DNA from: Candidatus Zixiibacteriota bacterium
Lineage (GTDB): Bacteria > Zixibacteria > MSB-5A5 > GN15 > JAAZOE01
Direction of reading: 5' to 3'
Assembly (NCBI GenBank): GCA_023138975.1
Contig: JAGLON010000018.1
Span: forward strand, 160,381-224,380
DNA length: 64,000 nt
The notes beneath the pieces are model-generated. The model did not search any database and was not told where the DNA came from. It was given only the letters and a program-made list of their open reading frames with translations. The position numbers were made by a program, and so were the translations under genes. Positions 16,425 to 46,577 of this stretch are shown here, piece after piece; positions within the stretch are counted from its first letter, which is position 1, and each line of letters starts with the position of its first letter.

Positions 16425-16891
16425 TAATTGCGCTCCAAATAGGCAGCGATTCCCGCTTGGACATAATCAGTAAACTGCTCCTCATCCCACACCAAATCCC
16501 ATATTTTTTCCAGATTACTCCAATTACCATTTTGATTTGGCCGGTTATCCACAATTACAAGCGACTGAACGATTAAATCATACTTTTCAGCAAACTGTAA
16601 ATTCTCCGGTTCCTCAATATTTGCGATCTTCCACCGGAGTTTCCCAGAGGCAATTTCATCGGCAAACTTCTCATGCACCGCAGTATAGGATAGCTTCTCA
16701 ATCTTAGTGCAGGTCGGGCATCTTTTACTGTTATGAAAATAATAAACCGTAATACCATCAAACGAGTCGGCGGCAATCTCGACAACAGAAACCGGCTCAG
16801 TCGATTTTAGCACATTATTATAAACAAAATGAGACACGCTCACGACGACAAAAAGAGCCAAAACCACGGTGTAGATTGTTTTGCTTTTCAT
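16424..16891 (-). CDS. membrane-anchored thioredoxin-fold protein with CPTC motif
   Basis: N-terminal anchor helix and YFHNSKRCPTCTKIE. Stop/start overlap with the CcdA-like gene. Confidence 0.7.
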   Translation of the reverse strand: MKSKTIYTVVLALFVVVSVSHFVYNNVLKSTEPVSVVEIAADSFDGITVYYFHNSKRCPTCTKIEKLSYTAVHEKFADEIASGKLRWKIANIEEPENLQFAEKYDLIVQSLVIVDNRPNQNGNWSNLEKIWDLVWDEEQFTDYVQAGIAAYLERN

Positions 16892-17154: not shown

Positions 17155-18453
17155 TTAGAACATAAGCCCATAAACAATACCGCTAATGGTTGACATGATA
17201 ACAACCAAGAAAACATAGACAACTGTTTTTTTCAACCCCATAACGCTCTTTATTACCAGCATATTCGGCAGTGATAACGCAGGACCGGCCAAGAGCAGAG
17301 CCAATGCTGGTCCCTTACCCATGCCGCTGCCGATTAAGCCCTGCAAAATTGGTACTTCGGTCAGTGTCGCAAAATACATAAATGCTCCTGCCACCGATGC
17401 AAACAAATTGGCGGCGATAGAATTACCTCCAACCGCGGCTGCTATCCACTCATTTGGTATAAGACCTTGATGACCGGGTCGTCCCAAAAGTAATCCAGCG
17501 ACCAAAACTCCATAGAACAATAGTGGCATGATTTTCTTGGCAAAATCCCAGCTTTGAGCGAACCACTCCCCGGTTTCATCCTTCGCTGTACCGGTTATTA
17601 CCGATAACCCGATAACAGCTGAAGTGAAAGATAGTGCCGGTGCTTCTGGAAAAAAGCCCCATAGTATTACCGGAGGAATTGCGATAAACAGGATTTTCCA
17701 CCAGACGATTTTAAACCAATTGATAAGAATCAATCCCAGAACCCCTCCCAGGAATGACACAACAATCCATTTATTGGCGTAGATACTCGCCCAGAGACCG
17801 GTTACTTCCTCCGGTTTGCTCCAGGTAGCGAAAATCAAAATTCCTATCATTACAGCAAAATAAATGGCTGTTTGAAGCAGATTTCTTGAAGAATCCTCGT
17901 CTGGAATTACCGCCTCGGCAGCTTTAGCGCTTTCTTCACGGCGATAAATAAATTGCATAATCAGCCCGATTACGATACTGAATATCACGGCTCCAACTGC
18001 GCGGGCGACACCAAGTTCAAAACCCAAAATCCGGGCGGTTAAAATAATAGCCATGATATTGATAGCCGGACCGGAGTACAAAAACGCAACCGCCGGTCCA
18101 AGTCCGGCTCCCATGCGGTAAATACCAGCAAAAAGCGGTAGAATCGTACAGGAACAAACCGCGAGTATTGAACCTGCTACGGAAGCCACAGGATAGGCAA
18201 TATATTTCTTGGCCCGCGGTCCGAGATATTTCATAACCGATGCTTGACCAATAAAAACGCCGATGGCTCCGGCGATGAAAAAAGCCGGTACCAGACACAG
18301 TAAAACATGCTCGCGAGCATACCATTGCGTCAAGTATACCGCTTCAAACAGAGCCGATTGAATTCTATCTAAATCTTTGGGTATAAAGTAGAATATCAAA
18401 AAGACGACGACAATTGCGGTCAGCGGCTTCCATTCTTTCTTCCAGTTGATCAT
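17155..18453 (-). CDS. DUF318/ArsP-like permease
   Basis: 432 aa with about 10 TM helices. Vicinal cysteines in SILAVCSCTILPLF. Confidence 0.75.
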   Translation of the reverse strand: MINWKKEWKPLTAIVVVFLIFYFIPKDLDRIQSALFEAVYLTQWYAREHVLLCLVPAFFIAGAIGVFIGQASVMKYLGPRAKKYIAYPVASVAGSILAVCSCTILPLFAGIYRMGAGLGPAVAFLYSGPAINIMAIILTARILGFELGVARAVGAVIFSIVIGLIMQFIYRREESAKAAEAVIPDEDSSRNLLQTAIYFAVMIGILIFATWSKPEEVTGLWASIYANKWIVVSFLGGVLGLILINWFKIVWWKILFIAIPPVILWGFFPEAPALSFTSAVIGLSVITGTAKDETGEWFAQSWDFAKKIMPLLFYGVLVAGLLLGRPGHQGLIPNEWIAAAVGGNSIAANLFASVAGAFMYFATLTEVPILQGLIGSGMGKGPALALLLAGPALSLPNMLVIKSVMGLKKTVVYVFLVVIMSTISGIVYGLMF

Positions 18454-18462
18454 ATTGAAGCC

Positions 18463-18783
18463 CTATTTTAACATTAACAACTGATTTTTTGCTGAGTTTT
18501 CCAAAACCTGCTCCACACATCCGAAAAAGATCATCACACAGTGCATGTGGAGTGAGTAGTTCACCTGCGTGCCCTTTTTGGCGCTGGTAATAATTCCGGC
18601 GTTTTTAAGGATTGAGAGGTGCTTGGAAACGGTGGACATATCGGCACCGATAATTTTCGTTAATTCCGCCACACACATATCCTGCTGTGAGAGCATATCA
18701 ACGATACAGAGCCGAGTGGGGTGTGCCATAGCCTTAATAACCCGGGCCCGTATTTCATATTTGGTCATATCAATGGTTTTCAT
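18463..18783 (-). CDS. ArsR/SmtB-family metalloregulator
   Basis: HPTRLCIVDMLSQQDMCVAELTKIIGADMSTVSKHLSILKNAGII winged-HTH pattern. Confidence 0.85.
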   Translation of the reverse strand: MKTIDMTKYEIRARVIKAMAHPTRLCIVDMLSQQDMCVAELTKIIGADMSTVSKHLSILKNAGIITSAKKGTQVNYSLHMHCVMIFFGCVEQVLENSAKNQLLMLK

Positions 18784-19134: not shown

Positions 19135-22008
19135 ATGTTAAAGAGCCGTAAAACTTTAATTGCCGTTTTGTATTTTGTTTTAATTTGCAGTTCAGTTTTA
19201 TTTGCCGCCCAGCTTCAATTGACTACTCCGAGAATAACAGAAGAATTAGAAGAAGCTGCTAATACTCGAATTGAAGATTACACATCATATATCGATGCCA
19301 ATCGGATATTTATGTTTGTGACCAATGAAGGAATGTTCGGTCGTGACCTGGCTGGAGTTTTCGGAAACGACTACGGAACCTACTATCCATATACTTCTAC
19401 CTCTGATATCATAAACGGTTTTAATACCTCGTCGCCTCTCTATGCTGCTGGTATCTGGATTGGCGGAAAAGTAAATGGGCAGACAAGAGTGGCCGTCGCA
19501 GAGTATTCAACTGAATATGTTCCCGGACCTATGCAAAACGGAACCTATCAGCCCGATCAATATGATTTCAAAAATTACAAGCTCTACAATGATAGCATGG
19601 AAAGTAATCCAAATAGTGACTATCTCAATTGGCCCGTTGATCAGGGTGCTCCGGTTGATGAATCTGGAAGACCGGTAATTAAAGGCAACCAGATGCTATG
19701 GAGCGTCTATAATGACGCAAATCCATGGCAGCATATGAGTAACCCCGGAAATACTGATCCATTAGGTATTGAAATTCAACAGTCTGTATATGCTTATAAT
19801 ATGGGCGGATTTGACTCTACCATTATACCTTCAGCACTTGAAGTCACTCATCTGGGCAGCTCCGATATAGGTTTGTCGGCCTATGGAGCAACAACTGATG
19901 TTCTGGAGGGACATGAATACATGTTGATCGTCAAGAAATTTGGTCCAGCTTCACATGAATGGAGTTTATCAAACTTGACTTCGGGAACCATACTTCTGGA
20001 TAATCAAACTCATTCCAACTTTGGCCCGATAGAGGGTTTACGTATTAACCTGGATTTCGGGACATCGGCCATATGGGAGTATGAGAGTGCCACCCCGGCT
20101 AATATCAGCCCGGTTGCAATGCAGGATTATCCGTCCTATACCGGAGGCAGATGGTTTTCCGGTACGGATTTTGGAGGCGAACTCTTTTTTGGTGGTGTCT
20201 TCATGGAACCCAGCTTCTGGGGAGTAACATCGGTTGCGCCAAATGACATCAAGCCGGTAGAAATTCGATTTCAGCCTATGGCCTCGTACACGGATCTCAC
20301 CGGTGACGGACAGTATACCATCGGCGAACCGTTTACAGTCGATGATCCGGGCCAGACACAAGGCGCATTCATGTACTACACTTTTGACGGCAATGCCTAT
20401 GAAGGTTTCTATCCCATTCCGTTCACTGCCTGGGATATATCTGATCCGGGAAATCATCGTCAGCTGAATGTTATCATCAGAGATAGAGACCAAAACCATG
20501 CTTGGAATCTGTACAGCGATGAGTACAACGCCTCCCTTCCCAATGACGGTGATTTACGTTATAACTATACTTGGATACAAGATTCTGACTATGATCCGAC
20601 CGGTACATACTATGGCGATGGTTCCGGAGGTTCGATTGATTTTTGGTCCTATAATGGCGGAAACGGCATCTGGGACGGCATGTGGGTACTCTATCTGAGA
20701 GACCGGTATAACGGAGGTATGCTCGCCGAAGAAGGAACTTTCCGGCTTTTGCCCAATACTGGCATGTCTGTGGATACGTTTTTATTCACAGCCATAGCCC
20801 CCGAGGTGATTTTTAGCGGTCCTGAAGATCAGGCGATTTATCTTGAATATAAATTGTTTAACAAAGGCTCAAACACGATAAGTGATATGTATATATCAAT
20901 GTGGGCCGATCCCGATCTGGGAGGCTTGGCAGATGATCTGGTCGGATGTGATACTATCAATGATGTGTACTTCTGCTATAATCACGATAGTTATGATGAT
21001 CAGTATTTCGATAACCCACCCGCCTTAGGCTTCAAAGTCCTGCGTGGTCCGCTGGTTCCTTCTCCTGGAGATACGGCTTACTTTGACAATATCCCTGTTC
21101 CCAATTACAAGAATATAGGTATGTCATCGTTTAATCTCTATGTCAATGGAACTGATCCGGACAACGCTGCTGAAACGTATAACTACATGCAGGGCCTTCA
21201 GCGGAACGGCGCTCCTCTCCCGAACGGAACTAAATATATGGTTCCCGGCAATCCTGTAGCAGGCACCGGTGATTTAGATGCCGCACCTGCGGACAAGCGC
21301 ATGATGGCCAGCTTTGGACCGTTTAACTTCAATCCGGGCGACAATCAATATGTACTAGTCAAAATGGCCGTCGGACGAGGTGCTGATCGGTTAGAATCAA
21401 TTACTCGGGCCATTCAAGTTCTCAATAACGATCCCGGTGGATTCCCCGATGACCCGTATCAGATGCTCTGTTCGTTATACCCTGATCCTCAGTATGCCCT
21501 TTTTCAATATGCAATCGATCCGATTCTTGATACAATCATATTAGGTCGGCTCGGTGAAGATATTGAAGACATCAATCTGGCCTCTATTCGTATTAATAAT
21601 GACTTGGTACCAATATCCACAGAGTACTTAACCGAATACGAAGGCTTCGGCGGCCGTGTCCTCCGCATAATATTCAACGGCTCTGAATTTGTTGCAGGAT
21701 ATGGCGTTGTATGGGATATGCAGTCTAAGCCATATACTGTCTCCGGACAATTTTCAGACAGTTCGCCGCTATTTTATGAAGGGATCTTTTTGCTTCGAGG
21801 CCACACCAGCGGTGACGCCAATTCTGATGGAATAATAAACGCTGCTGATGCTGTCTATCTCATCAACTATATATTCAAAAGCGGCCCGGCGCCCGATCCG
21901 ATAGAACTGGGCGACGCTAACAATGACAGCAGGATTAATGTCGGCGATGCGGTCTTCTTGATAAATTACATCTTCCGCAACGGCCCGGCACCGGGGCAAC
22001 GGCAGTAA
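19135..22008 (+). CDS. large secreted protein with a C-terminal dockerin-like double repeat; N-terminal 850 aa of unknown function
   Basis: Signal peptide MLKSRKTLIAVLYFVLICSSVLFA, RBS AGGAGGG. C-terminus GDANSDGIINAADAVYLINYIF ... GDANNDSRINVGDAVFLINYIF (two EF-hand-like Ca loops). Confidence 0.85.
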   Translation: MLKSRKTLIAVLYFVLICSSVLFAAQLQLTTPRITEELEEAANTRIEDYTSYIDANRIFMFVTNEGMFGRDLAGVFGNDYGTYYPYTSTSDIINGFNTSSPLYAAGIWIGGKVNGQTRVAVAEYSTEYVPGPMQNGTYQPDQYDFKNYKLYNDSMESNPNSDYLNWPVDQGAPVDESGRPVIKGNQMLWSVYNDANPWQHMSNPGNTDPLGIEIQQSVYAYNMGGFDSTIIPSALEVTHLGSSDIGLSAYGATTDVLEGHEYMLIVKKFGPASHEWSLSNLTSGTILLDNQTHSNFGPIEGLRINLDFGTSAIWEYESATPANISPVAMQDYPSYTGGRWFSGTDFGGELFFGGVFMEPSFWGVTSVAPNDIKPVEIRFQPMASYTDLTGDGQYTIGEPFTVDDPGQTQGAFMYYTFDGNAYEGFYPIPFTAWDISDPGNHRQLNVIIRDRDQNHAWNLYSDEYNASLPNDGDLRYNYTWIQDSDYDPTGTYYGDGSGGSIDFWSYNGGNGIWDGMWVLYLRDRYNGGMLAEEGTFRLLPNTGMSVDTFLFTAIAPEVIFSGPEDQAIYLEYKLFNKGSNTISDMYISMWADPDLGGLADDLVGCDTINDVYFCYNHDSYDDQYFDNPPALGFKVLRGPLVPSPGDTAYFDNIPVPNYKNIGMSSFNLYVNGTDPDNAAETYNYMQGLQRNGAPLPNGTKYMVPGNPVAGTGDLDAAPADKRMMASFGPFNFNPGDNQYVLVKMAVGRGADRLESITRAIQVLNNDPGGFPDDPYQMLCSLYPDPQYALFQYAIDPILDTIILGRLGEDIEDINLASIRINNDLVPISTEYLTEYEGFGGRVLRIIFNGSEFVAGYGVVWDMQSKPYTVSGQFSDSSPLFYEGIFLLRGHTSGDANSDGIINAADAVYLINYIFKSGPAPDPIELGDANNDSRINVGDAVFLINYIFRNGPAPGQRQ

Positions 22009-22659: not shown

Positions 22660-23160
22660 AGATTTAACCACCCCCTCGCCCCCTCCTTACTAAGGAGGGG
22701 GATGGGGGAGGTTCGCTGTAAACATGGATAGTAGGGCAGGTTCCCTTAGGAACCTGCCAATGCCAAACATAGGTGACATTCCTATGGCAGGACCCCTAAC
22801 AATATTAGGACTATAGCCTTTATTTCCCCTCTCTAGAGGGGACCTGTATCACGCCATCTTAGTTTATAATTCATTTGAGATGTCCAGAATAATTGCTTGT
22901 GTGTTAAAATAGACTCCAATAATTAAACCTAAACTGCAGAAATTAACAACATCGTCCCCTCTATAAGAGGGGTGCCCGACAGGCTATAGTCCCGCTCTGC
23001 GGGGGCGGGGTGTGTTAACTTGTGGAAAGCGTAAAATGGGTTTACTTGTCTGTTTAGAAAATCTTTCGAGCGTAAGCGAGTTAGATTATCTTAATCCCGC
23101 ATTTTAATGCGGGACGACGAGTACTCCGTGGATGCTCATTTTTTAAAGTTTTTTGAGTAG
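22660..23160. repeat. hairpin-module mosaic A (REP/BIME-like)
   Basis: Modules shared with other gaps: 22666-22712, 22731-22766, 22808-22818, 22948-23018, 23053-23114, 23133-23154 (see findings). Confidence 0.85.
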
Positions 23161-23489: not shown

Positions 23490-25844
23490 TTATTTTCCGC
23501 ATCCGTCAAGCGGTGGGCCCCCATCCCGGAAAATGAAATTAATCAGATACACAGCATCAGCGAGATTAACAATTTCATCGCCATTCATATTTCCCGCACA
23601 TAAAGGACTTGGTGCAGCTCCAGCTCTAAAAATATAGTTAATGAGAAAAACAGCATCACTGAGGTGGAGAATCCCATCACCGTTGGCGTCACCGGGCACT
23701 ACTTGACTTCCATTACTAAAGGTCTTGTTATAAAGTGTGGCGTATACTGTTGTAATATCAATGTCTCCGTCAGAGTCAAAATCAATTCCTACCGGGTTGC
23801 TCCCAATGATATGATAATGATCGGGCTCAGCAAAAGTACCATCCCCGGCTCCCAACAAAACTGTCAAGTTGCCCGATATTACCCCGGTTATATCAGGAAA
23901 TCCATCGCTATTGATATCAGCGCACAAAGGCTGTCTGCCTCCACACTCGTAATGAACAGGACCTGAGAATGTCCCATTCCCATTATTTAGAAAGATTGAT
24001 GTATTATCGTCGGTTGAAGCCGCTATATCATTGTCTCCGTCATTATCAAAATCCTCCGCCAGCAAACCATAAACTCTATCAATACTGCCCGTAGTATAGC
24101 TTACCGTATCGGCAAATGTTCCATTACCGTTACTCAGCAAGACAACAAAGCCATCTACTATTCCATATTCCAAAAACACCAGATCAACATCACCATCATC
24201 ATCTAAATCAGTAACATCCATAGCACCGGGTGCACCCCCTTCATGAAGATAAGTAGCCGTGCCGAATGTCCCGTCACCGTTATTCAGGCTTATAAAGACG
24301 CCTGATGGATAACTTGAATACGAAATAGTTAGATCGATATCTCCATCCCCATCAAAATCTCCACCCGATAGATATTTGGCTTTACTCCCAATGGAAGAAA
24401 TAATAGCTGACCCAAAAGTTCCATCACCATTATTCGGATATATATATATATCCGTCAAAAGAGAAAATCCTACTGCCAAATCAATATAATCGTCACCGTT
24501 ATAATCAGAACCAAATACTGACAGCGGACGGTCAGGAAGTGCGATGTAGTACGGTGTGTTGTAGGGATCAGGACTATTATTCAGATAAACTGAAATAGAG
24601 CTATCGCTATAATTTGCAGTAGCAATATCATCATGCATCCAATCACCATCAAGGTCGCCGACCCACATATTATAAATCGATCTTACAGCCCGATAAGGTG
24701 TTCCAGCAAACGTTCCATCGCTATTATTCATCAAGACTGCAATTGCGGTTCCTTGACTTACTGCCAGATCAACATTTCCGTCATCATCAAGATCACCAGC
24801 AACCAGCGCGGCTTTGAGACTACCGCCATAATAACCTATTGGCGAAGCAAATGTTCCATCTCCATTGTTTGAAAGAATAGCAATAGTATACGTCCCTCCC
24901 CTGCCAACAACCGCCAGATCAATATCACCATCCGCGTCAAAATCGGCGGCATTTATAGTATTCGATTTTTCAGTTGCGGCATATTTAATAGCCGCACCAA
25001 AAGCACCACTGCCGTCATTTATAAGGATTGAAACGGTATCGGTAACGCTATTAGCGAAAGCAAGGTCCTTATAACCATCACCGTTAAAATCTGCTCCGGT
25101 TACAGAATTCTGAGCCTCACCCAGATCATAATAAACGCCTGCTGCAAACCCTCCAGAACCATTGTTCAGTCGAACGCAGGCACTATTACTTCCCTTGCTG
25201 CCGACCGCCACATCGATATCTCCATCACCATTCAGGTCAGATGCAAAAATTGAATAGGGCAAGGAGCCAACCGTATGGTAGGTGGGTGTTCCAAATACGC
25301 CTGTGCTATCGTTTAGCATTATTGAAATCTGGTTATTGGTAGTTGCTGTGATTACCAGATCATTATCAAAATCACCATCAATATCGGCTATCGTCACGAA
25401 TCGAGGCTGACCGTGAGTATAGTAGCTGATTCTACTTTCAAAGGTTCCATCACCATTATTTTTCGAAACAAAGACATTTCTGCTGCCGGTAAGAATACTG
25501 GATACGCACACCAGATCGATATCGTTATCACCATCAATATCGGCTCCGCTTATAGACATCGGCAACATCCCGGTTAGGTATTCCTCCGCTTCGGCATAGG
25601 TCCCATCGCCATTGTTCAGCAAAACCGAAATATAACTATTATTTTGCGCATCAACTCTTGTGTAAACAACCGCCAAGTCAATATCGCCATCACCATCAAA
25701 ATCCGCAGCGAACATATCCCCGGCACTCCAGACCTCATAAATGGGCGGAAGCCAGTCAAAAAGGTCACCGGCTATAACATTAGCTGTGGGCGTTGAAATC
25801 ATAAAAACGGTTAATATTGTGAGTGTCATCAGCAATTTTCGCAT
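23490..25844 (-). CDS. secreted FG-GAP/VCBS-repeat (beta-propeller) protein with a C-terminal dockerin-like double repeat
   Basis: At least 11 repeats of FxxADFDGDGDIDLxV type. C-terminus GDANGDGILHLSDAVFLINYIF ... NMNGDEIVNLADAVYLINFIF. Start set at MRKLLMTLTIL (25844, GGAGA RBS); the 94-codon upstream extension in the ORF track is rejected. Confidence 0.85.
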   Translation of the reverse strand: MRKLLMTLTILTVFMISTPTANVIAGDLFDWLPPIYEVWSAGDMFAADFDGDGDIDLAVVYTRVDAQNNSYISVLLNNGDGTYAEAEEYLTGMLPMSISGADIDGDNDIDLVCVSSILTGSRNVFVSKNNGDGTFESRISYYTHGQPRFVTIADIDGDFDNDLVITATTNNQISIMLNDSTGVFGTPTYHTVGSLPYSIFASDLNGDGDIDVAVGSKGSNSACVRLNNGSGGFAAGVYYDLGEAQNSVTGADFNGDGYKDLAFANSVTDTVSILINDGSGAFGAAIKYAATEKSNTINAADFDADGDIDLAVVGRGGTYTIAILSNNGDGTFASPIGYYGGSLKAALVAGDLDDDGNVDLAVSQGTAIAVLMNNSDGTFAGTPYRAVRSIYNMWVGDLDGDWMHDDIATANYSDSSISVYLNNSPDPYNTPYYIALPDRPLSVFGSDYNGDDYIDLAVGFSLLTDIYIYPNNGDGTFGSAIISSIGSKAKYLSGGDFDGDGDIDLTISYSSYPSGVFISLNNGDGTFGTATYLHEGGAPGAMDVTDLDDDGDVDLVFLEYGIVDGFVVLLSNGNGTFADTVSYTTGSIDRVYGLLAEDFDNDGDNDIAASTDDNTSIFLNNGNGTFSGPVHYECGGRQPLCADINSDGFPDITGVISGNLTVLLGAGDGTFAEPDHYHIIGSNPVGIDFDSDGDIDITTVYATLYNKTFSNGSQVVPGDANGDGILHLSDAVFLINYIFRAGAAPSPLCAGNMNGDEIVNLADAVYLINFIFRDGGPPLDGCGK

Positions 25845-26134
25845 GTAGGATTTCTCCATAGCTAATAGGATGGTAAATATCTTCATAATATCCCCCGATG
25901 GGTGAATAACTAGTAGATGTCCGCAAATCGATTTGCCCCAGTATAAACGGATAGGCCTACCCAAATGCCCCAAACTTGGTATTGTCTCGTGTGCTCTTTT
26001 GATGCCCCGCAACGCAATAATTGCATGCGGAGAAAAGTGATACTTGTATCTATATATAATATGCAATTGTGATTCTGTCAATAGAGCTTTTTCTTCAGAC
26101 TGTAAAGCCAATAAGAGTACTCTCAACCACAGAA

Positions 26135-26449: not shown

Positions 26450-27817
26450 ATGAAAGTCTGTATTAGTGTTACTCTTCTCATCTGTCTGTTATTACCATTT
26501 CCAGTCTTTGCGGTATCGCCGTATCAGCAGGAAATTTATAGCGCTCGTGACCGTGTTTTACCGGCGCTTATTCATATTCAGCCGGTGGTAATCGACTACA
26601 TTACCGGCCGGGAAAAGAAACATTCCGTGGTCGGTTCGGGAATCATTATCTCCGCCGACGGCTACGCTGTAACCAACTATCATGTTGCCGGCCGAGCCGA
26701 GCGGATCATCTGCACCCTGCATGACAGGGAGCAGGTTCCTGCAGTCCTTATCGGAGGCGATCCGGCCACCGATCTGGCCGTTATCAAATTAGACCTTTCA
26801 GAGTATTCCGGCAAGCTTGACCCGGCTGTCTTCGGTTCATCAAGCGACTTGCAAGTTGGACAAACGGTGCTGGCACTGGGTTCTCCTCTGGCTCTATCCC
26901 GCTCGCTGTCCAAGGGCGTAATATCGACTTTAAACCGCTTCTTCCCCGGCAATATAAGACTTCCCTCCGGTGAAAAAACCGGTAAGTATAATACCTGGCT
27001 GCAAACCGACGCGGCCATCAACCCCGGCAACTCCGGCGGACCGTTAGTAAATCTTGATGGCGAAGTCATGGGGATAAATACCCGAGGCGTTTTCTTTGCC
27101 GAAAACATAGGCTTTTCGATTCCGGTTGATATCGTCAAGGAAGTAACGGCCAAGCTAATTGAATTCGGAAAGGTTGACCGCAGTTGGATTGGCGTTCACG
27201 CTCAACCGCTGCAGGATCTGGAATCATTCTTCGGAACCGAAACTAACCGCGGCGTATTGATAGCCTCAATCGACCCCGGCTCACCAGCTGAGAAAGCGGG
27301 ACTGAAGGCAGGACAGATTATCCTGAAATATAATGGCCATGATGTATCGGCCCGGTTTGAGGAAGAATTGCCGGCCTTTTATCAGATTATAGCATCTTCT
27401 CCAGCCAATACCGAAGTTGAAGTTGTTCTTCATAACGGTGATGATAAAGTTATAAAGATTATTCCGAGAGCGCTGGGCGCTCTTCAGGGTGATGATTTCG
27501 ATTTCGAGAAATGGGGTTTCACCGCCAAAGCGATTACCAATCAAATGGCTATCGATCGCAGACTCGATGATACTCTGGGCGTTTTTGTGACTCAATCGGC
27601 AATGGCCGGTGCCGCCTTTAGCGGAGGTCTTCATCGAGGCGATGTTATCATGGAGCTAAACAATAAACCGGTCAACAGCCTCGATGAACTAAAAACAACC
27701 TATGATGAAATGCAGGAAGCGGAAAAAATCCTTCTGACGATTAATCGTAGCGAAACCCGCCGCCTGGTCCTGATGAAACTGGACAACGAAGAGGATACTG
27801 AAGACGATGAAAAATAA
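26450..27817 (+). CDS. htrA: HtrA/DegP-family periplasmic serine protease with two PDZ domains
   Basis: Signal peptide. Catalytic TNYHV (His), DLAVIKL (Asp), GNSGGPLV (Ser). PDZ motifs GSPAEKAGLKAGQIIL and GLHRGDVIMELN. Confidence 0.9.
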   Translation: MKVCISVTLLICLLLPFPVFAVSPYQQEIYSARDRVLPALIHIQPVVIDYITGREKKHSVVGSGIIISADGYAVTNYHVAGRAERIICTLHDREQVPAVLIGGDPATDLAVIKLDLSEYSGKLDPAVFGSSSDLQVGQTVLALGSPLALSRSLSKGVISTLNRFFPGNIRLPSGEKTGKYNTWLQTDAAINPGNSGGPLVNLDGEVMGINTRGVFFAENIGFSIPVDIVKEVTAKLIEFGKVDRSWIGVHAQPLQDLESFFGTETNRGVLIASIDPGSPAEKAGLKAGQIILKYNGHDVSARFEEELPAFYQIIASSPANTEVEVVLHNGDDKVIKIIPRALGALQGDDFDFEKWGFTAKAITNQMAIDRRLDDTLGVFVTQSAMAGAAFSGGLHRGDVIMELNNKPVNSLDELKTTYDEMQEAEKILLTINRSETRRLVLMKLDNEEDTEDDEK

Positions 27818-29204
27818 GCTGTTTGTTCTAATAATCACGATGCTGTCCGTTTCAGTTCTTTGGGCCGGAGACGCTAATTTCCAAAAGCTGTTTGATAAAG
27901 TGAACCCGCACCTCGTTTCGGTGGAATATAAGGCCGAGATGAATTTTATGGGTCAGTCCGAAGATATCGAGGGACGTGTCCCCGGCATCATTATCAACGG
28001 CAATATTGTTATCTTCGACGGGACATCATTGGGAGCCGGAAGACTGGCAACCGACATGTACGGCTCGCCTCAGGTTGATAAACCGAAATCCATCAAAATC
28101 ACGGATTATAACGACAACACGTATGATGCCGAGTATATCGGCGTTGATGATTACAGTCTAATCGCGTTTTGCCGTCTCCCCGATTCGGCCATGAAAAACC
28201 TGAAAGCAGTAGAGCTTAAAAATAAATCATTGCGGCTGGGTGAGGAAGTTTACGTTTTCTGGATGCTGCCGAAAAGCTACAATCCCAAATATCAACTGAC
28301 CAAAACCAGAATCACCTCGGTCCTGACTAAACCGGAAAAATTCTATCTCACCGGTGAACTGCCTCAGGAGTTTGTTCTGTCTCCGGTCGTTACGGCCAAA
28401 GGAGAGATGATCGGTATTATCACCCCGGTAACACAGGTACCGTCTTATACCCGCTTTGATTACGGTAACGTTTTCGGCAATCCGGTCGGGATTATGCCTC
28501 TGGAGCGGTTTGAGAAAATCATCAATAACCCGCCCGAAGAGGATAAAGTAAAACGCGGCTGGATGGGAATTTCACTTCAGGCGCTCGACCCGGAAATTGC
28601 TGAATTCTGGGATGTCAAAGTTGACGGCGGGATTATCCTAACGGATATAATCGATAATTCTCCCGCGGAAAAGGCCGGTCTGAAAGCCGGTGATTTCTTG
28701 ATCAAACTCAACGGCGAATCAATTGATGTTACGGAAGATGAAAACATTTCTATCTTCCAAAAGAAAGTTTCCGAATTAGGCGCTGGCTCGGAAATTACAC
28801 TGCTCTATATTCGTCCCGGTGACAATCAAGTGGATTCGAATGAAGTTACCATCGTTTTGGCCGAACGGCCGGGCGCTCGCAGTGACGCTCCCAAGCATGA
28901 AGATGAAAACTTCGACCTGACGGTACGGGATATGGTTTTTGCCGACTATAATGCCCGTAATCTAAAAGAGGACGAAATCTCCGGCGTCATCGTCGAGAAA
29001 ATCGAACAAGGCGGATGGGCCGCGGTCGGAGGTCTCCGTACCGGTCTTATCATCACGCAAATCAATGGCAACGAGATTGTCTCGGTTGAGGACTTCAAGA
29101 CCATCATGGCCGAGATTGAGAGCAGCAAAGACAAAGAAGTTGTATTCATGACGTGGCGGCGCAACAAGACAAAATTTGTGCACGTCAAAACCCACTGGGA
29201 ATAA
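27807..29204 (+). CDS. HtrA-like protein with two PDZ domains but a degenerate catalytic triad (pseudo-protease)
   Basis: Overlaps htrA by 11 nt. Where htrA has TNYHV it has VIFDG, and where htrA has GNSGGPLVNLDGEVMGI it has EFVLSPVVTAKGEMIGI. PDZ motifs NSPAEKAGLKAGDFLIKLNG and GLRTGLIITQING. Confidence 0.8.
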   Translation: MKNKLFVLIITMLSVSVLWAGDANFQKLFDKVNPHLVSVEYKAEMNFMGQSEDIEGRVPGIIINGNIVIFDGTSLGAGRLATDMYGSPQVDKPKSIKITDYNDNTYDAEYIGVDDYSLIAFCRLPDSAMKNLKAVELKNKSLRLGEEVYVFWMLPKSYNPKYQLTKTRITSVLTKPEKFYLTGELPQEFVLSPVVTAKGEMIGIITPVTQVPSYTRFDYGNVFGNPVGIMPLERFEKIINNPPEEDKVKRGWMGISLQALDPEIAEFWDVKVDGGIILTDIIDNSPAEKAGLKAGDFLIKLNGESIDVTEDENISIFQKKVSELGAGSEITLLYIRPGDNQVDSNEVTIVLAERPGARSDAPKHEDENFDLTVRDMVFADYNARNLKEDEISGVIVEKIEQGGWAAVGGLRTGLIITQINGNEIVSVEDFKTIMAEIESSKDKEVVFMTWRRNKTKFVHVKTHWE

Positions 29205-29902
29205 GGGAGGATGCCCCCCCTTTTTTAGGCTATTTAGAAAATCTTACGAGTTATAACGAGTTAGATTATCTTAATCCCGCGTTTTAATGCGGGAACGCGT
29301 AGATGACCTGGGTTTTATAATCATGAGTTTGCTTTTATACGGCACAGCTTCGCCTGCCTGAAGATATAAACTTTTTTTCTGACAGGGATACTCCCTTTTC
29401 AGGCAAAGCCTACTACTAAAAAGATGATTTTATAATTAACCACCCCCCATCCCCCTCCTTAGTAAGGAGGGGGGTTTCGACATTGTTCTGCCATTGTAAC
29501 TGGTCATATCCCGGCAGATGTAGATATCCCGCAACGCAGGACAATAGCCTGCCAGGCACAAAACTCCATTATGAAATTCGGTAGGTCAAGACCCCTGCGG
29601 TCTTGACAGTCGGTAGGGCAAGTTCACCCCCTACATGGGCACAATAGCCCTTAGGAACCTGCCATTGCCAACCAAAGGTTGGCAACCTAGATTCCCGCCT
29701 GCCATCAGAGGATAACTTTGTTTTTATGGTCAATCCTCTTCGTAGGGGCTGACTATGTCAGCCCGAAAAGACTTTGGCTGTGATTCCATCCGGGTCGACA
29801 GAGTCGCCCCCTACAGGGAAAATAGAATCCACTTTTTATAGAAAATGTTCAGACCATTTTTCGCCACCAATGGGTGCGGTACAAACTGCTCTAACCTACT
29901 CT
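29205..29902. repeat. hairpin-module mosaic B (REP/BIME-like)
   Basis: Modules at 29233-29294, 29346-29362, 29438-29475, 29520-29549, 29581-29607, 29637-29668, 29742-29814 and 29857-29885, all with copies in other gaps. Confidence 0.85.
29742..29814 (+). repeat. 73-bp REPIN-like inverted doublet (copy 1)
   Basis: GTAGGGGCTGAC-tat-GTCAGCCC ... GGGTCGAC-aga-GTCGCCCCCTAC. The reverse complement of 46035-46107 aligns end to end. Confidence 0.8.
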
Positions 29903-31945
29903 TTACTTCATTGATTTTAACGCTTTTTCGATATTATCTTTTTGAGGACTGTCGGGTACTTGCTCAAGATAGTAAGTCAAATATTTCTCTGCCTTTTTGC
30001 CATCTTTAACATAATAAGCACTGTACCCTGCTAATACATAGTTCTCTAGTCTTTCTGGAAGCACAGATGTCATTTTTTCATAATACACCAACGCCGAATC
30101 ATATTTCTGTAATGTGAAATATGCTGTTGCCATTGCTTCTGTCACTCGGTGATACTCAGGATCAATCTTCAGAGCCTTGTTATAATACTGAAACATTCTA
30201 TAATAATCTTTTATCTTAAAATATAGAACGCCCAAATTTGCATGATTTATTGAACTGTAAGGTTCAAATTCCAGTGCAAGTTTAAGATCAGATTCAGACT
30301 TTTTTAACTGGCCTAAATTTAAATAGGTTACTCCTCGTAGAGCATAAGATCCCGCTTTGTAGGGTTCGATGTTAACAAGCTTATGAGCCAATGGCAGCGC
30401 TTCAGCATACTTTCCCGCAGTATTCAGCCCTTCGGCCTGTCGCAGATAGGTTATTTCTGGAAAAATCTGGCGCGTATGCATTTGAGTACTATTTGCCTGA
30501 GCAGAATCGCCCAAATTTAAATAGTAGTCCTGTAAAACCACATACCCGGTTTTGCTTTTTGGCGTATCAAGTTTCAATAAGTATGTGTAGTAATCTATGG
30601 AAGGTTTAGTCTGCAAATTAACAAAAAAGTATGGTAGTATTAAGAGAAATGACAGAATCGTAATGGCCGGAATAAACTGCTTATGGCGTGTATTACCAAA
30701 ATTCATTGAGGCCAACAAAAGAAGCAACAGCGCAAAACCGCATAGAGAAAACAAGTCCCAATCTCGTCCCATACCAATTCGGGGGTCGAGGATCAATATC
30801 AAACCTAAACCTCCGATAAAAAATACCCATAGGAAATTGCGGGCTGGAGATTTGCCGTTGGCTTTTCGATTTTTTATAGCAAAGTAGAGTAATATTGGCC
30901 ATAGAGGAACCAAGAGGCTGAATTCATTGATAATATCAAGCATATGCGAAATAGAAATCAGTGCATACTCCGTCGCAGGAGCCCGCCCTGAGAATAATGG
31001 CAGAAAATGAACTTCGAATCCGGGCGACGTAAAGTATTTGTAGAAGAATAAGACGGCACCCCCGGCAATTAAAACAGATGCCCCGATCAGGAAGATAGTT
31101 TTGTATTTCTCGAAGAGTTTTCTACCTGGATTAATCGCAATTAATAATACTGGCATTGAGATAAGGAAAAACAGGCTTTGCAGATGCATCACAATAGCAA
31201 GCAAGGCTAACAATACCGGCCAAATAATTCCGCAGTTCTTGTTTATATACTTCAGTGAAAAATAAACATAACCGGATATTGATGCCCACAGAAGCGGATA
31301 ATTTTCAGCATACCCCATAAACAGGAGCATCCACCCGCTGAAAATTGAAAGCGCAAGAATAAATAGTCGATTGATATTCTCCTGAGTTATCTCAAAAGCT
31401 ATCCCGCACAGGAAGAAAACAGTAACGCCTCCGGATAAGACAGAGACTACAGCAAAGGCGGTTTCGCCTCCCTCTTTGCCGGCAACCGGTAATATTGAAT
31501 AGACAAGTTTGACAACAGCAATCGATCCGATTTCCGTCCACTTATACATGACCGGGTTATCGCTCCCGATGTGACCGATAACAGTATATCCGTCTCCCAG
31601 AAAATGAGTCGGCATCTTAAGGATCCAGAAAAGAATCATAAGGACTACTGAAAAAAGCATCCACTTGATCTGTTTCTTACCGGAAAATAGAAATCCGAGA
31701 GATTCAAAAAGTTGAAGAACCGCCTTGTTAAAACTCTTAATTAGAAACAGAAACAAAAGAAGAAAACAGCAGAGATAAGGAATCAGGGTAGCATCCGGTA
31801 AAAACTGCAGATGATTAAATCCCCAAATACGACCTTCTGGAAGAACCAGGTGAATGAAACGTACGAGAACCAGCATCAATCCCAATGCAGTGACTATGAT
31901 TGGGTTGATTGTGTAGTTTTGATCATTGTAAGAATTGCTTTTCAT
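29903..31945 (-). CDS. multi-pass membrane protein with C-terminal TPR repeats (GT-C-like architecture; family not recognised)
   Basis: 680 aa, about 12 TM helices, then TPR-like repeats (AEALPLAHKLVNIEPYKAGSYALRGVTYLNLGQLKKSESDLKLALEFEP...). Confidence 0.7.
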   Translation of the reverse strand: MKSNSYNDQNYTINPIIVTALGLMLVLVRFIHLVLPEGRIWGFNHLQFLPDATLIPYLCCFLLLFLFLIKSFNKAVLQLFESLGFLFSGKKQIKWMLFSVVLMILFWILKMPTHFLGDGYTVIGHIGSDNPVMYKWTEIGSIAVVKLVYSILPVAGKEGGETAFAVVSVLSGGVTVFFLCGIAFEITQENINRLFILALSIFSGWMLLFMGYAENYPLLWASISGYVYFSLKYINKNCGIIWPVLLALLAIVMHLQSLFFLISMPVLLIAINPGRKLFEKYKTIFLIGASVLIAGGAVLFFYKYFTSPGFEVHFLPLFSGRAPATEYALISISHMLDIINEFSLLVPLWPILLYFAIKNRKANGKSPARNFLWVFFIGGLGLILILDPRIGMGRDWDLFSLCGFALLLLLLASMNFGNTRHKQFIPAITILSFLLILPYFFVNLQTKPSIDYYTYLLKLDTPKSKTGYVVLQDYYLNLGDSAQANSTQMHTRQIFPEITYLRQAEGLNTAGKYAEALPLAHKLVNIEPYKAGSYALRGVTYLNLGQLKKSESDLKLALEFEPYSSINHANLGVLYFKIKDYYRMFQYYNKALKIDPEYHRVTEAMATAYFTLQKYDSALVYYEKMTSVLPERLENYVLAGYSAYYVKDGKKAEKYLTYYLEQVPDSPQKDNIEKALKSMK

Positions 31946-32039: not shown

Positions 32040-32640
32040 TAATAAAGAGAAGGTCAAGACCTACCCACTGCGTGGGTACTATAGCCTGTGATCCTGACAT
32101 TGCCAACTGTTTTTCAAACGGGTCATTTCACCGCGCAAAATGCAACATCGTCCCCTCTATGAGAGGGGTGCCCGACAGGGCGGGGTGTGTTAATGCAATC
32201 TCATCCAATTCGCGCTCTGCGCGAAACGGCTTCGCCTGCCTGAAATTCTTCTACCCGGTATCCCACGGCTTCAGCCGTGGGTTTTTCCTTATTGATAGCA
32301 AGTCGACTAATTTCGCACCCAATGGGTGCGGTACACTGTAGCCACAAATCATCTACTAATAACATACACACATTTTCGCCACAACTTCGTTGGTGATTTC
32401 GAATTGCTCATCTTTTTATAGATATCCTTATATGTTATAGCGGAGAGACCATTATGCTCGCCTGTAAAAACCAAATCAAATTCAATCGCCAAAACGACCA
32501 ACTTTCAATCTTGCTTATTTCTGGCAATTTACACAAAGCCGAAAACAAAAAAACTTTAAAAAATGAGCAAGCAAACCCAATTCCTCGTAACGCCCTGTAT
32601 GGTAATCAGTAACGAGACTTTTTAAGGAAATAGGTCTCAA
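32040..32640. repeat. hairpin-module mosaic C (REP/BIME-like)
   Basis: Modules at 32052-32105, 32144-32192, 32228-32244, 32262-32281, 32311-32338, 32548-32569 and 32610-32628, with copies in other gaps. Confidence 0.85.
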
Positions 32641-32708: not shown

Positions 32709-32994
32709 GAGTGTCTCCCCTGCGAAAGCAGGGGTCCATGCCGAGATTGACTTTGCTTGGGCATGGATTCCCGTTTTCACGGGAATGACAAAATGATAAT
32801 TTGAGTATTAGAGTGTCTCCCCTGCGAAAGCAGGGGTCCATGCGGAGATTGACTTTGCTTGGGCATGGATTCCCGTTTGCACGGGAATGACAAAATGATA
32901 ATTTGAGTATTAGAGTGCCTCCCCTGCGAAAGCAGGGGTCCATGCGGAGATTGACTTTGCTTGGGCATGGATTCCCGTTTTCACGGGAATGACA
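32709..32994. repeat. tandem repeat, 102-bp unit x 2.8, each unit carrying three hairpins
   Basis: Units start at 32711, 32813 and 32915 with only about 3 substitutions in total. Hairpins cccctgc-gaaa-gcagggg, ccatgc..gcatgg and attcccg-ttttca-cgggaat. Confidence 0.9.
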
Positions 32995-33109
32995 TATCTG
33001 AAATTGGCTCAAATAATAAAACTTATTAGGATAATGCCAAACTTTTCAAATCTACTTTCCAATCTGACTTGACAATGGTTTTGCCACCATTTTGCCTGTT
33101 TTTGATTCC

Positions 33110-33218: not shown

Positions 33219-34064
33219 ATGAAACATATGCTAAAGCATTTCACAGTGGCTGCAATAGTTTTCGCACTTTGCACAATTGCCGCACCGGTTTTCGCTGTTG
33301 ATATATCGGTTGGGTCTGCGACAGGCGCTCCGGGAGATCAAGTTGTTGTTCCCGTTTACCTTAACAACAATGACGTCAGGATTGCGTCTCTTACCGTACC
33401 GCTTCAGTTCTCCAATACCTACCTTAATATCGATTCGGTATCTTACGCAGGAACACTCATAAAGCCGAATATGTCTCCCCTGACCCATATCGATAACCCG
33501 GGGCAGTTTTTACGGATCACTTATATTCCCAGCGCCGGTCTACCACTGATTGAGGATTCTCAGGGACTGCTGGCCAATATTTACTTCACGATCTCTCCAT
33601 CGTCCCCGGATCATATTATTTACGTGGACTCGGTAAATAGTTTGACAACCATACAGAGCCTTGATATATGGGTGCGTATGGAAATTAGCGATTCTCTGGG
33701 AGAGAGCTTGGTCTTTCCTGACTTCTCAGCCGGGACAGTCGAAGTCAGAAATCCTCTTGATGCCGATGATGATGAATTTGGTTTGCCTAATGTACTGGCC
33801 TTGAACCAGAATTATCCTAACCCGTTCAACCCGACAACGACAATCAAGTTGGCCGTTCCTGTTGCCTCCGATTATTCATTGGAGATTTACAACATTGCCG
33901 GTCAGAAGATTCGTTCCTTCAGTGGCTTTGCCAATGCTGGAAACGTTGAAATCGTGTGGGATGGTAAGGACAATTCCGGCAGCACGGTTGCTACAGGTGT
34001 CTATTTCTACAAGGTTATAGCTGGAGAATTCTCCGCTACCAAGAGAATGGTCATGCTGAAGTAA
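33219..34064 (+). CDS. secreted cohesin-domain protein with a T9SS type-A C-terminal sorting domain
   Basis: Signal peptide. Cohesin-like ISVGSATGAPGDQVVVPVYLNNNDVRIASLTVPLQFSNTYLNIDSV. C-terminus LNQNYPNPFNPTTTIKLAVP...GVYFYKVIAGEFSATKRMVMLK (Por_Secre_tail pattern). Confidence 0.8.
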   Translation: MKHMLKHFTVAAIVFALCTIAAPVFAVDISVGSATGAPGDQVVVPVYLNNNDVRIASLTVPLQFSNTYLNIDSVSYAGTLIKPNMSPLTHIDNPGQFLRITYIPSAGLPLIEDSQGLLANIYFTISPSSPDHIIYVDSVNSLTTIQSLDIWVRMEISDSLGESLVFPDFSAGTVEVRNPLDADDDEFGLPNVLALNQNYPNPFNPTTTIKLAVPVASDYSLEIYNIAGQKIRSFSGFANAGNVEIVWDGKDNSGSTVATGVYFYKVIAGEFSATKRMVMLK

Positions 34065-35819: not shown

Positions 35820-36045
35820 GTCATACCCGTGAAAACGGGTATCCAGAGCGGAGTTCGGTCAATCTCACTACTGGATTCCCGACTCGTCCCGTTTTACGGA
35901 ACTCTCGGGAATGACAGGGAGATGGCAACCGCTGGCTAGCAATGGCAGGATAGTTACCCACTGCGTGGGCACTATAGCTCGTGATCCTGACATTCGTGCG
36001 AAGCACGATAAGTACTCGTAAAGGTGACAGGCTATAATACCCACA
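35820..36045. repeat. hairpin-module mosaic D
   Basis: 35823-35842, 35871-35918, 35955-35994 and 36030-36042 have copies elsewhere. Confidence 0.8.
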
Positions 36046-37439: not shown

Positions 37440-37790
37440 TGCTAACCACCCCCATCCCCCTCCTTGGTAAGGAGGGGGCGAAGGGGAGGTCTTCCTGTCC
37501 TAAACAAAAAAGTCTCGTTACTTCTTATCACACAGAGCGTTATAGCGAATTGGCTTCACTCGTCTTTGACGAGTACCCTGTGCTTGCTCACTTTTAAGGT
37601 TTTTATTTTTTGAATTAAGATTTAGCGGTTCAGAGGATAGATCTCGTCTCTGTGAGATTGCTGTTTTCATCAGTTTCCCTTTTTGATGGTGTTTACTAAA
37701 GAATCTATCTTCGGGATTTGAATCGAATTGGTAGTGAAAGTGTTGCTGTTACCGATGAGGACATCCCGCATAGCAGGACTATAGTCTGCC
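37440..37790. repeat. hairpin-module mosaic E
   Basis: 37444-37490, 37505-37610 (about 75% identical to the reverse complement of 32545-32630) and 37757-37786. Confidence 0.8.
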
Positions 37791-38489: not shown

Positions 38490-38575
38490 GCCAACCTGCG
38501 ATTGGCAATGTCAGGAGCACGGGGCTCCTGACCTACGGGGCTATAGTGCCCCACGCAGTGGGTAGGTTTTGACCA
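38490..38575. repeat. hairpin-module cluster H
   Basis: The reverse complement of 38502-38573 matches 32052-32105 with an internal GTAG-headed hairpin (gtaggtcaggagc-cccgt-gctcctgac). Confidence 0.8.
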
Positions 38576-45895: not shown

Positions 45896-45920
45896 GGGGG
45901 GATGAACCCCCAGAATTAAT

Positions 45921-45950
45921 AAAAGCCTCGTATTGTACGGGGCTTTTTTT
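45921..45950 (+). terminator. rho-independent terminator after pyrG
   Basis: aaaagcctcg-tattgta-cggggc followed by TTTTTTT. Confidence 0.8.
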
Positions 45951-46034
45951 ATAGTACCTAGCAGATGTGGACCTCCCGCAAGGCAGGACTATATCCTTCG
46001 GCCTCCTCGCAGTGACGGGTTAATTACTTTCGAG

Positions 46035-46107
46035 GTAGGGGACGACTCTGTCGTCCCGTCTGGAATCACTACATGAAATTTTTCGGGCTGACAAAGTCAG
46101 CCCCTAC
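46035..46107 (-). repeat. 73-bp REPIN-like inverted doublet (copy 2, inverted relative to 29742-29814)
   Basis: GTAGGGGACGAC-tct-GTCGTCCC ... GGGCTGAC-aaa-GTCAGCCCCTAC. Confidence 0.8.
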
Positions 46108-46430
46108 GATGAAACATGTGTGAATCCCAGAATCATATTGTGATATTAGCTTTCCCAGTAGCTGTGGACATCTCTCAAGCCGGGACTATAACGTGCCAAG
46201 AACACAACAGTTCTATTCGTCATCGCGAGGAGCCATGGTGACATGGCGATCTGTCAACATCCTAAACAGACTGCCACAAAACCCTTCAGGTTTCTCGCAG
46301 TGACGGATCATTTATCTTAGCATGAGATTAGATCGGTGGCCCATCCCGTAAGAGGTTCTTACCTCGTCGGGTGGTCTAAAGTCTCATTTGGTTCCCGCTT
46401 AGCGGGATCTGAGTGACGTAGGACATAATT

Positions 46431-46491
46431 GGTAACCCATGGCTTTAGCCATGGGAAACAAAAACACCCACGGCTAAAGCCGTGGGGTACC
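46431..46491. repeat. second REPIN-like doublet (two inverted copies of the cccaYggc-ttta-gccRtggg hairpin)
   Basis: ggtaacccatggctttagccatggg-aaacaaaaaca-cccacggctaaagccgtggggtacc. Confidence 0.75.
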
Positions 46492-46525
46492 GGAACATGA
46501 ACCCCCTTATAAAAGATCCCTATAA

Positions 46526-46556
46526 CAAAAAGCCCCGTATTGTGCGGGGCTTTTTT
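46526..46556 (-). terminator. rho-independent (bidirectional) terminator after the 832-aa gene; near-duplicate of 45921-45950
   Basis: aaaaagccccg-tattgtg-cggggctttttt. Confidence 0.8.
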
Positions 46557-46577
46557 GTAACACTTGTCTAAAATACT

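Follow-up and report, generated by a model that had tools for sequence, protein, structure and literature searches.

A head-to-head doublet of GTAG-tagged extragenic palindromes, probably of the REPIN type, in Zixibacteria

We describe here a 73-nucleotide (nt) element that is present twice, in opposite orientations, in a 64,000-nt stretch of the genome of a Candidatus Zixiibacteriota bacterium (assembly GCA_023138975.1, contig JAGLON010000018.1, positions 160,381 to 224,380), referred to below as the window. The element is probably a doublet of the REPIN type, in which two GTAG-tagged repetitive extragenic palindromes (REPs) form a head-to-head heterodimer. A preliminary description of the window had proposed a REPIN-like inverted doublet of GTAG-headed hairpins, and the architecture found here does match the published class of head-to-head GTAG-REPs and REPINs. 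As such, the element is of a known kind, an ordinary genomic parasite or passenger and not a new kind of system.

The features against which the element can be set are well documented. Most REPs were assigned by Di Nocera et al. (2013; PMC3733652) to a GTAG-tagged superfamily, for which the sections of that paper on which we draw here and below describe stems of 6–13 bp, loops mostly of 2–3 nt and subfamilies distinguished by complementary stem changes. Several families can share one genome, and dimers are frequent, with spacers ranging from 1–2 bp (Opitutus terrae) to 20–100 bp. The commonest dimer type, termed 'HH', has the GTAG termini on the outside and is often a heterodimer with different stems, a difference suggested to protect the dimer from cruciform processing; the preferred sites of these REPs are gaps between convergent or unidirectional open reading frames (ORFs) (PMC3733652). 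Elsewhere, REPs have been defined by a GTAG or GTGG located 0–2 nt 5′ of a 7–20 bp stem with a 2–5 nt loop (Quentin et al. 2018; PMC6006769). Bertels and Rainey (2011; PMC3116915) gave inverted REP doublets the name REPINs and argued that it is these doublets that RAYTs copy as a unit. TnpA-REP enzymes have been found to bind and cleave folded single-stranded REPs; GTAG serves as a determinant, joined in small perfect palindromes by particular bases of the loop (Corneloup et al. 2021; PMC8266576).

Two copies of a bounded element

The sequences quoted in the preliminary description for 29742-29814 (+ strand) and for the reverse complement of 46035-46107 were confirmed letter for letter. Both copies have the same anatomy, set out below with the scores of a covariance model (CM) of the REP unit, R1:

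29742..29814, + strand: doublet copy 1, an HH heterodimer of 73 nt made up of a left REP, a 27-nt spacer and an inverted right REP
29742..29764, + strand: left-type REP of copy 1, GTAG GGGCTGAC tat GTCAGCCC, with a perfect 8-bp stem (R1 39.7 bits, E-value 4e-7)
29765..29791, + strand: 27-nt spacer of copy 1, GAAAAGACTTTGGCTGTGATTCCATCC, identical at 17/27 positions to the copy 2 spacer
29792..29814, − strand: right-type REP of copy 1, GTAG GGGGCGAC tct GTCGACCC, with a G/A mismatch at stem pair 4 (R1 37.9 bits)
46035..46107, − strand: doublet copy 2, an HH heterodimer of 73 nt in the orientation opposite to copy 1
46085..46107, − strand: left-type REP of copy 2, GTAG GGGCTGAC ttt GTCAGCCC (R1 39.3 bits)
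46035..46057, + strand: right-type REP of copy 2, GTAG GGGACGAC tct GTCGTCCC, with a perfect stem (R1 38.9 bits)

In a repeat search, the two copies form the longest inverted repeat of the window (88 nt, 80% complementary), and their 73-nt cores are identical at 60/73 positions in an ungapped alignment. The hairpin arms are identical at 43/46 positions against 17/27 for the spacer (Fisher p = 0.003). Within the spacer, the blocks GAAAA and GTGATTCCA lie at equal offsets in both copies, and since the probability of an identity of at least 17/27 arising by chance is about 6e-5, the spacers are homologous. Beyond the element this similarity ends: the 40-nt flanks match at 9/40 and 14/40 positions, which is the chance level. 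Because the flanks are unrelated, the two sites hold copies of a single bounded element and not the product of a segmental duplication.

Run without filters, R1 picks out exactly four units in the window; no other match rises above noise. These four, together with the two units of a third doublet described below, share a single plan in which GTAG stands 0 nt from an 8-bp G+C-rich stem closed by a 3-nt loop. The first loop base is T in 6/6 units and the stems are perfect in 5/6, the exception being the mismatched hairpin at 29792-29814. The placement of GTAG, the sizes of stem and loop and the extragenic, convergent location are all those of GTAG-REPs, and two inverted REPs with a short spacer and the potential to form hairpins are what defines a REPIN. 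As to family size, the figure is four units of this stem class in 64 kb.

A third doublet in a related genome

A further doublet came from a scan of one genome per species with the pattern GTAGGGGVYGACNNNGTCRBCCC, which returned at least 117 loci. Among those listed, most were chance matches in high-GC coding DNA or members of a Chthoniobacterales family to which we return below; one, L130, was relevant. It belongs to the Ca. Zixiibacteriota metagenome-assembled genome (MAG) AC1.147 (GCA_041394985.1), a close relative of the source genome: its CTP synthase gene (pyrG) and that of the window share a 90% cluster. The AC1.147 doublet reads GTAGGGGCTGACtacGTCAGCCC-gc-GGGTCGACagaGTCGACCCCTAC: its left and right types and their order are those of the window copies, its spacer is 2 nt long and convergent ORFs surround it.

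REP units of this stem class were sought with R1. Across the window and the relatives' loci covered by the model (~229 kb), the class is found as doublets in 3/3 cases, always in the same left/right order, and as singlets in none. Extensions of 10 kb beyond each window end (L161 and L162; 20 kb) contain no unit of the class, and a BLAST search of the 73-mer against plasmids gave only two matches, both at chance level. Unrelated flanks, a third doublet of both REP types in a related genome and an enrichment of GTAG hairpins (see below) together go against the refuting case set out in the preliminary description, in which there would be no further copies and a larger segmental duplication would explain the two.

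Folding and paired stem changes

Folded as single-stranded DNA (ssDNA), the four strands of the two copies have z-scores of about −3.5 to −6.1 (−3.5 and −3.9 for copy 1, −4.7 and −6.1 for copy 2), with 0/200 shuffles folding as well. Each half is thus a GTAG-headed hairpin and the two are arranged in inverted orientation, as had been proposed, the folds bettering 200/200 shuffles. The further suggestion that the whole element folds into one long hairpin needs qualifying. Such a structure is possible but merely about isoenergetic with two separate hairpins: the long and the paired forms have −15.4 vs −14.2 kcal/mol in copy 1 and −15.3 vs −17.1 kcal/mol in copy 2. The long hairpin brings no clear gain over two small ones because the arms differ at 2/8 stem positions.

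When the stems of all six units are aligned, 6/8 pairs are invariant and 2/8 variable. The two variable pairs hold five double-sided changes and one unpaired cell, so that 97.9% of all cells are paired; in slid controls of the same alignment pairing drops to 22–46%. The substitutions that preserve pairing between the two arm types, to which the preliminary description drew attention, are therefore real, with five double-sided changes, but not without exception, as the right hairpin of copy 1 (GGGGCGAC/GTCGACCC) has G opposite A.

GTAG-headed hairpins as a lineage feature

GTAG is the commonest 4-nt head among the perfect hairpins of the window. It heads 6 of the 124 with stems of at least 7 bp, against 0.21 expected from tetramer frequency (p = 1e-7), and these hairpins fall into four stem classes. 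At seven related Zixibacteria loci the count is 13/266 against 0.41 expected (p = 7e-16), an enrichment of about 30-fold over expectation in both samples, whereas two more distant relatives have almost no GTAG-headed hairpins. It is because of this enrichment in seven relatives' loci and near-lack in two distant relatives that we call GTAG-tagged palindromes a feature of the lineage, with the 73-mer as one family among several. Locus L157 has another head-to-head dimer (18446-18503), with a compensatory G:C to A:T difference, and L165 a cluster of three GTAG-tagged hairpins (16430-16524). The window itself contains three further GTAG hairpins:

22731..22758, + strand: REP-like hairpin GTAG GGCAGGTTCC ctta GGAACCTGCC, of the same superfamily and a different stem class
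29581..29607, + strand: hairpin GTAG GTCAAGACC cctgc GGTCTTGAC, 135 nt upstream of copy 1 in the same gap
38510..38536, − strand: hairpin GTAG GTCAGGAGC cccgt GCTCCTGAC

A variant of the first of these, with compensatory inner-stem changes, is found in L130 at 6300-6327. The segment 29613-29662 (GTAGGGCAAGTTCA...CTTAGGAACCTGCC) also resembles a REP of the 22731 type, here with a loop insert of ~24 nt that holds CCCCTAC. A hairpin of the type ATTGCCAACC-nnn-GGTTGGCA follows both 29613-29662 and 22731-22758 and recurs at 38500 and 35923.

Genomic setting of the doublets

All three known doublets, the two of the window and that of AC1.147, sit between convergent ORFs. The genes that border the two window gaps are:

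27807-29204, + strand: ORF for a PDZ protein, on one side of the 698-bp gap that holds copy 1
29903-31945, − strand: ORF for a TPR/exosortase-like protein, on the other side of that gap
44222-45895, + strand: pyrG, on one side of the 682-bp gap that holds copy 2
46578-49076, − strand: ORF for an NTP-transferase/phosphomannomutase fusion, on the other side of that gap

Both gaps, of ~700 bp each, are crowded with other short hairpin repeat families. A terminator scan called nothing in the copy 1 gap; in the copy 2 gap it called terminator-like hairpins at 45921-45947 (+) and 46486-46467 (−), which bracket the doublet. The REP hairpins themselves were not called, and no T-run follows their stems. 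The doublet is not the terminator of either flanking gene, and an intrinsic (Rho-independent) terminator is ruled out as its identity, there being no T-run and, in the pyrG gap, separate hairpins having been called. A known RNA family is likewise ruled out by a search of Rfam 15, which gave no gathering-level match in the window and only sub-threshold chance matches in the two intergenic regions.

Two observations on the surroundings may be recorded here. Cumulative GC skew has its minimum at ~32–34 kb, the skew being negative over 1–34 kb and positive over 34–58 kb, an origin-like switch. This switch lies between the two oppositely oriented doublets, which may therefore have the same orientation relative to fork movement, although with n = 2 this could be chance. 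The other concerns the region downstream of pyrG, where the gene content is different in every Zixibacteria relative examined whilst the upstream gatC-kdsB-pyrG block is conserved (regions compared: window 45896-46577; L157, L163, L165, L166 and L167 from 11663; L164 from 1779). This rearrangement hot spot coincides with repeat-rich intergenic DNA. In L163, which has the closest pyrG relative (91%), positions 11682-11710 read GTAG GGCAGATTT cttaagc AAATCTGCC, located 20 nt after the pyrG stop and followed by a T-run; to judge by its sequence, it resembles a REP that also acts as an intrinsic terminator.

Comparison with known systems

Of the systems described to date, the GTAG HH heterodimers offer the closest parallels. 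Both have an unpaired GTAG 5′ of the stem, termini on the outside and unequal stems, as in Pseudomonas aeruginosa GTAG-24. The O. terrae GTAG-17 dimers, with spacers of 1–2 bp, resemble the AC1.147 doublet, and dimers with spacers of 20–100 bp resemble the window copies. Shared too are the convergent setting, the subfamilies with complementary stems and the occurrence of several stem families in one genome. The difference lies in the hosts, among which Zixibacteria are not named in the sections of PMC3733652 used here; the REP strings described above are also absent from the supplements to that paper, and a literature search for them matched only unrelated primers or oligonucleotides.

The REPINs of P. 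fluorescens SBW25 resemble the window copies in their inverted REPs, short spacer and potential to form hairpins in ssDNA. Because the spacer is homologous and no singlets of the class were seen, the doublet is apparently the copied unit here too. In SBW25, copies in the hundreds, an excess of doublets, excision intermediates and a RAYT close by have all been shown. A structural difference is that the window arms differ at 2/8 stem pairs, the long hairpin being no more stable than two small ones. The 'group 3' REPs of Stenotrophomonas maltophilia and Marinomonas, processed by TnpA-REP, are alike in having a short perfect palindrome after GTAG, and the invariant first T (6/6) of the short loop described here recalls their essential loop positions; they differ in that the 5′ dinucleotide here is not consistently CT or CA. 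Finally, the subterminal hairpins of the IS200/IS605 insertion sequences are comparable in being hairpins, there recognised as folded ssDNA, in having a tetranucleotide on the 5′ side where the guide sequence would be, and in leaving no target-site duplication. Unlike those elements, the doublets have an interior of 27 nt or 2 nt with no transposase gene between the hairpins.

Proposed mode of copying and points against it

Comparison with these systems suggests that the doublet may be a mobile unit. If what is known of REPs and RAYTs holds here (PMC8266576; PMC3116915), the doublet would be copied as a unit on ssDNA, for example at a replication fork, by an HUH/Y1 enzyme of the RAYT (TnpA-REP) type acting in trans. 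This enzyme would recognise GTAG together with the folded hairpin, cleave nearby and rejoin the ends, leaving no target-site duplication. The arms (43/46) might be kept either by recognition by the enzyme or by a constraint on hairpin formation, with the spacer (17/27) free to drift. At its present sites, the doublet is most likely carried as a passenger, either neutral or of some slight use.

Several results weigh against a REPIN-type identity. There are only two doublets in ~84 kb of the source genome, and one of the four window hairpins (29792-29814) is mismatched. Scans of metagenomes of the Joint Genome Institute gave 0 matches to a strict doublet pattern and, with a looser single-REP pattern, one chance match in high-GC coding DNA (L156). 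GTAG is preceded by varied dinucleotides (TC, CT, TC, AG, TT, TC) and not by the consistent CT of some REP systems.

Neither window location has a usable empty site among the relatives compared. For the copy 2 site, pyrG relatives at 82–91% identity all differ in downstream gene content, a sixth, P0130 (84%), likewise by its gene table. For the copy 1 site, no ortholog of the TPR/exosortase flank gene exceeds 45% identity. Contig L168, a strain variant, stops 78 nt past the gene, and other assemblies of both sites are of the same genome.

Nor was any Y1/HUH transposase gene found in the 64-kb window, in the 10-kb extensions or in ~150 kb of relatives' loci. This search drew on gene tables with Pfam assignments, Pfam applied to 18 window ORFs, phmmer with E. 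coli RayT and a regular expression for the HUH...Y-x3-NP motif; the phmmer and motif scans covered 8,526 six-frame ORFs from the window and 157 other loci and returned nothing credible. A homology search with E. coli RayT listed only Enterobacteriaceae. RAYTs are usually single-copy, and for this reason their absence from the regions covered is weak evidence.

Alternative explanations

It is conceivable, but unlikely, that the doublets are cis-acting signals of the host, such as bidirectional terminators, stabilisers of mRNA 3′ ends or sites for DNA-structuring proteins, which selection at the 3′ ends of convergent genes would have created or maintained, without any spread by transposition. 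All three lie between convergent genes at 68–140 nt from the nearest stop codon, their stems are G+C-rich and stable, and roles of this sort are credited to REPs of other bacteria in the parts of PMC3733652 consulted. The transcript of the nearest gene would also read the right-type REP first in 3/3 cases (n = 3, chance 0.25). Set against this, none of the stems has a T-run behind it and, in the pyrG gap, each gene is followed directly by a terminator-like hairpin of its own and the doublet lies in between, a position largely outside both transcripts. Independent origin, moreover, cannot account for a homologous 27-nt spacer (p = 6e-5). A host function of this kind accounts for the retention of the doublets, not for their origin, and is compatible with origin as a REPIN.

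A classical miniature inverted-repeat transposable element (MITE) derived from an insertion sequence (IS) with a DDE transposase would explain a small, non-coding, sharp-bordered element whose 12-nt terminal inverted repeats (GTAGGGGCTGAC ... GTCGnCCCCTAC), matching at 10–11 of 12 positions, would be transposase binding sites. We consider this very unlikely. The borders of the three copies (TC/AG, TC/CT and TT/GA) contain no target-site duplication; either end of the element forms a complete GTAG-tagged palindrome by itself; the same genomes are enriched in single GTAG hairpins whose stems are unrelated, a pattern that suits REPs and not IS ends; and the AC1.147 copy, with its 2-nt spacer, is essentially devoid of an interior. 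With terminal inverted repeats present and direct repeats lacking at the borders of 3/3 copies, a DDE-type MITE was rejected. Chance resemblance, a larger segmental duplication or an assembly artefact, for which one might cite the mere two copies in the window, are barely credible. The cores are identical at 60/73 positions with a homologous spacer, the CM E-value is ~1e-6 per half, flank similarity is at the level of chance and a cognate doublet exists in another MAG; an independent deposit, GCA_030634725.1 (L158), is 99.995% identical over 21.7 kb. The results on homology, on the flanks and from the independent deposit have already refuted this reading. A REPIN-type doublet of GTAG-tagged REPs remains the explanation that we favour.

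The same REP cores in other phyla

Among the matches listed, the left-type core GTAG-GGGCTGAC-nnn-GTCAGCCC occurs in Zixibacteria (the window and L130) and in several unrelated groups. In Eubacterium/Clostridiales MAGs it forms intergenic singlets at five loci (L039 5937, L069 3790, L075 173, L099 4624 and L126 5559), three of these contigs being from one Eubacterium MAG; all five read C-GTAGGGGCTGAC-att-GTCAGCCC, with ATT as the loop and a C in front in every case. With other loops, the core is found in a Melainabacteria MAG (L056 2827) and in Leptolinea sp. HRD-7 of the Chloroflexota (L088 144). In Chthoniobacterales/Udaeobacter, an abundant element of ~47 nt has the right-type core GTAG-GGGACGAC-nnn-GTCGTCCC as its first hairpin.

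This ~47-nt element of the Verrucomicrobiota, GTAGGGGACGACgttGTCGTCCCatggGAAGCCaacGGCTTCCCCTAC, consists of two different hairpins framed by GTAGGG/CCCTAC. Most copies are preceded by CT (the T being almost invariable), which is the cleavage dinucleotide reported for some TnpA-REP systems. It was seen at L040, L043, L045, L050, L051, L062-L067, L070, L073, L078, L080, L083-L085, L092, L097, L102, L104, L107, L109, L111, L113-L115, L118, L120, L123, L131, L133 (labelled Chloroflexia), L134, L145 and L147-L149. A high-GC relative, GTAGGGGCGGACnnnGTCCGCCC, is present several times on some viral-classed contigs (L012 1577-1628, L037 553/1562/4099 and other IMG/VR loci); two of the copies stand in tandem, separated by 6 nt.

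One RAYT/REP recognition code might be shared across phyla, whether through horizontal transfer of REPtrons or through convergence, with Zixibacteria harbouring a REPIN population not reported before; we regard this as rather unlikely. Were it true, Zixibacteria REPINs would serve as a test case for such a code outside the Proteobacteria. Alternatively, the REPs of Zixibacteria could persist with no RAYT at all; some other mechanism of copying would then be indicated.

Other repeats in the window

The window is rich in other repeats. A repeat of 40–50 nt built around the palindrome CCCCCTCCTTAGTAAGGAGGGGG has three copies, in both orientations, at 22664-22713, 29436-29473 and 37444-37490. Another, of 30–40 nt, has four (29517-29546, 37754-37783, 45964-45993 and 46161-46190), with a reverse-complement consensus of approximately TATAGTCCTGCnnnGCGGGAnnTCCACATC; two of these stand as direct repeats on either side of doublet copy 2, at distances of 41 and 53 nt. 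A T/G position in its stem pairs on one strand only, which hints at an element acting at the level of RNA. Further dispersed repeats link 23041-23114 with 29221-29294, 22947-22983 with 32143-32179, 32052-32101 with 35955-35994 and 38550-38574, and 32255-32286 with 46431-46493. Such dispersed families are common to the intergenic regions between 22.6 and 46.6 kb, and most end in palindromes like ATCCCGCnTTTTAATGCGGGA, TACCCACTGCGTGGGTA and CCCACGGCTAAAGCCGTGGG.

Two repeats of a different character involve ORFs. Three tandem copies of a 102-bp unit (98% and 85% identity) lie at 32709-33014 and overlap an ORF of 165 amino acids with no credible Pfam match. The protein of 878 amino acids encoded at 23490-26126 (− strand) has 12 FG-GAP-like repeats and a C-terminal dockerin, and is the source of DNA repeats with a period of ~150 nt; cohesin/T9SS-tail and dockerin proteins are encoded nearby at 33219-34064 and 19135-22008.

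Significance

Within the literature searched, there is no earlier report of repetitive extragenic palindromic repeats in Zixibacteria. The value of the finding lies in annotation and in the pointer that it gives to a cognate RAYT in Zixibacteria genomes; no new mechanism is opened by it. Repeats of this type break metagenomic assemblies and flag intergenic regions prone to rearrangement. The doublet is also a clean, small example of a heterodimer whose arms differ by compensatory changes and whose spacer has been lost between relatives (27 nt vs 2 nt). If, as is probable, it is of the REPIN type, the candidate phylum Zixibacteria (FCB group) would be added to the known hosts of GTAG-tagged REPs and REPIN-type doublets.

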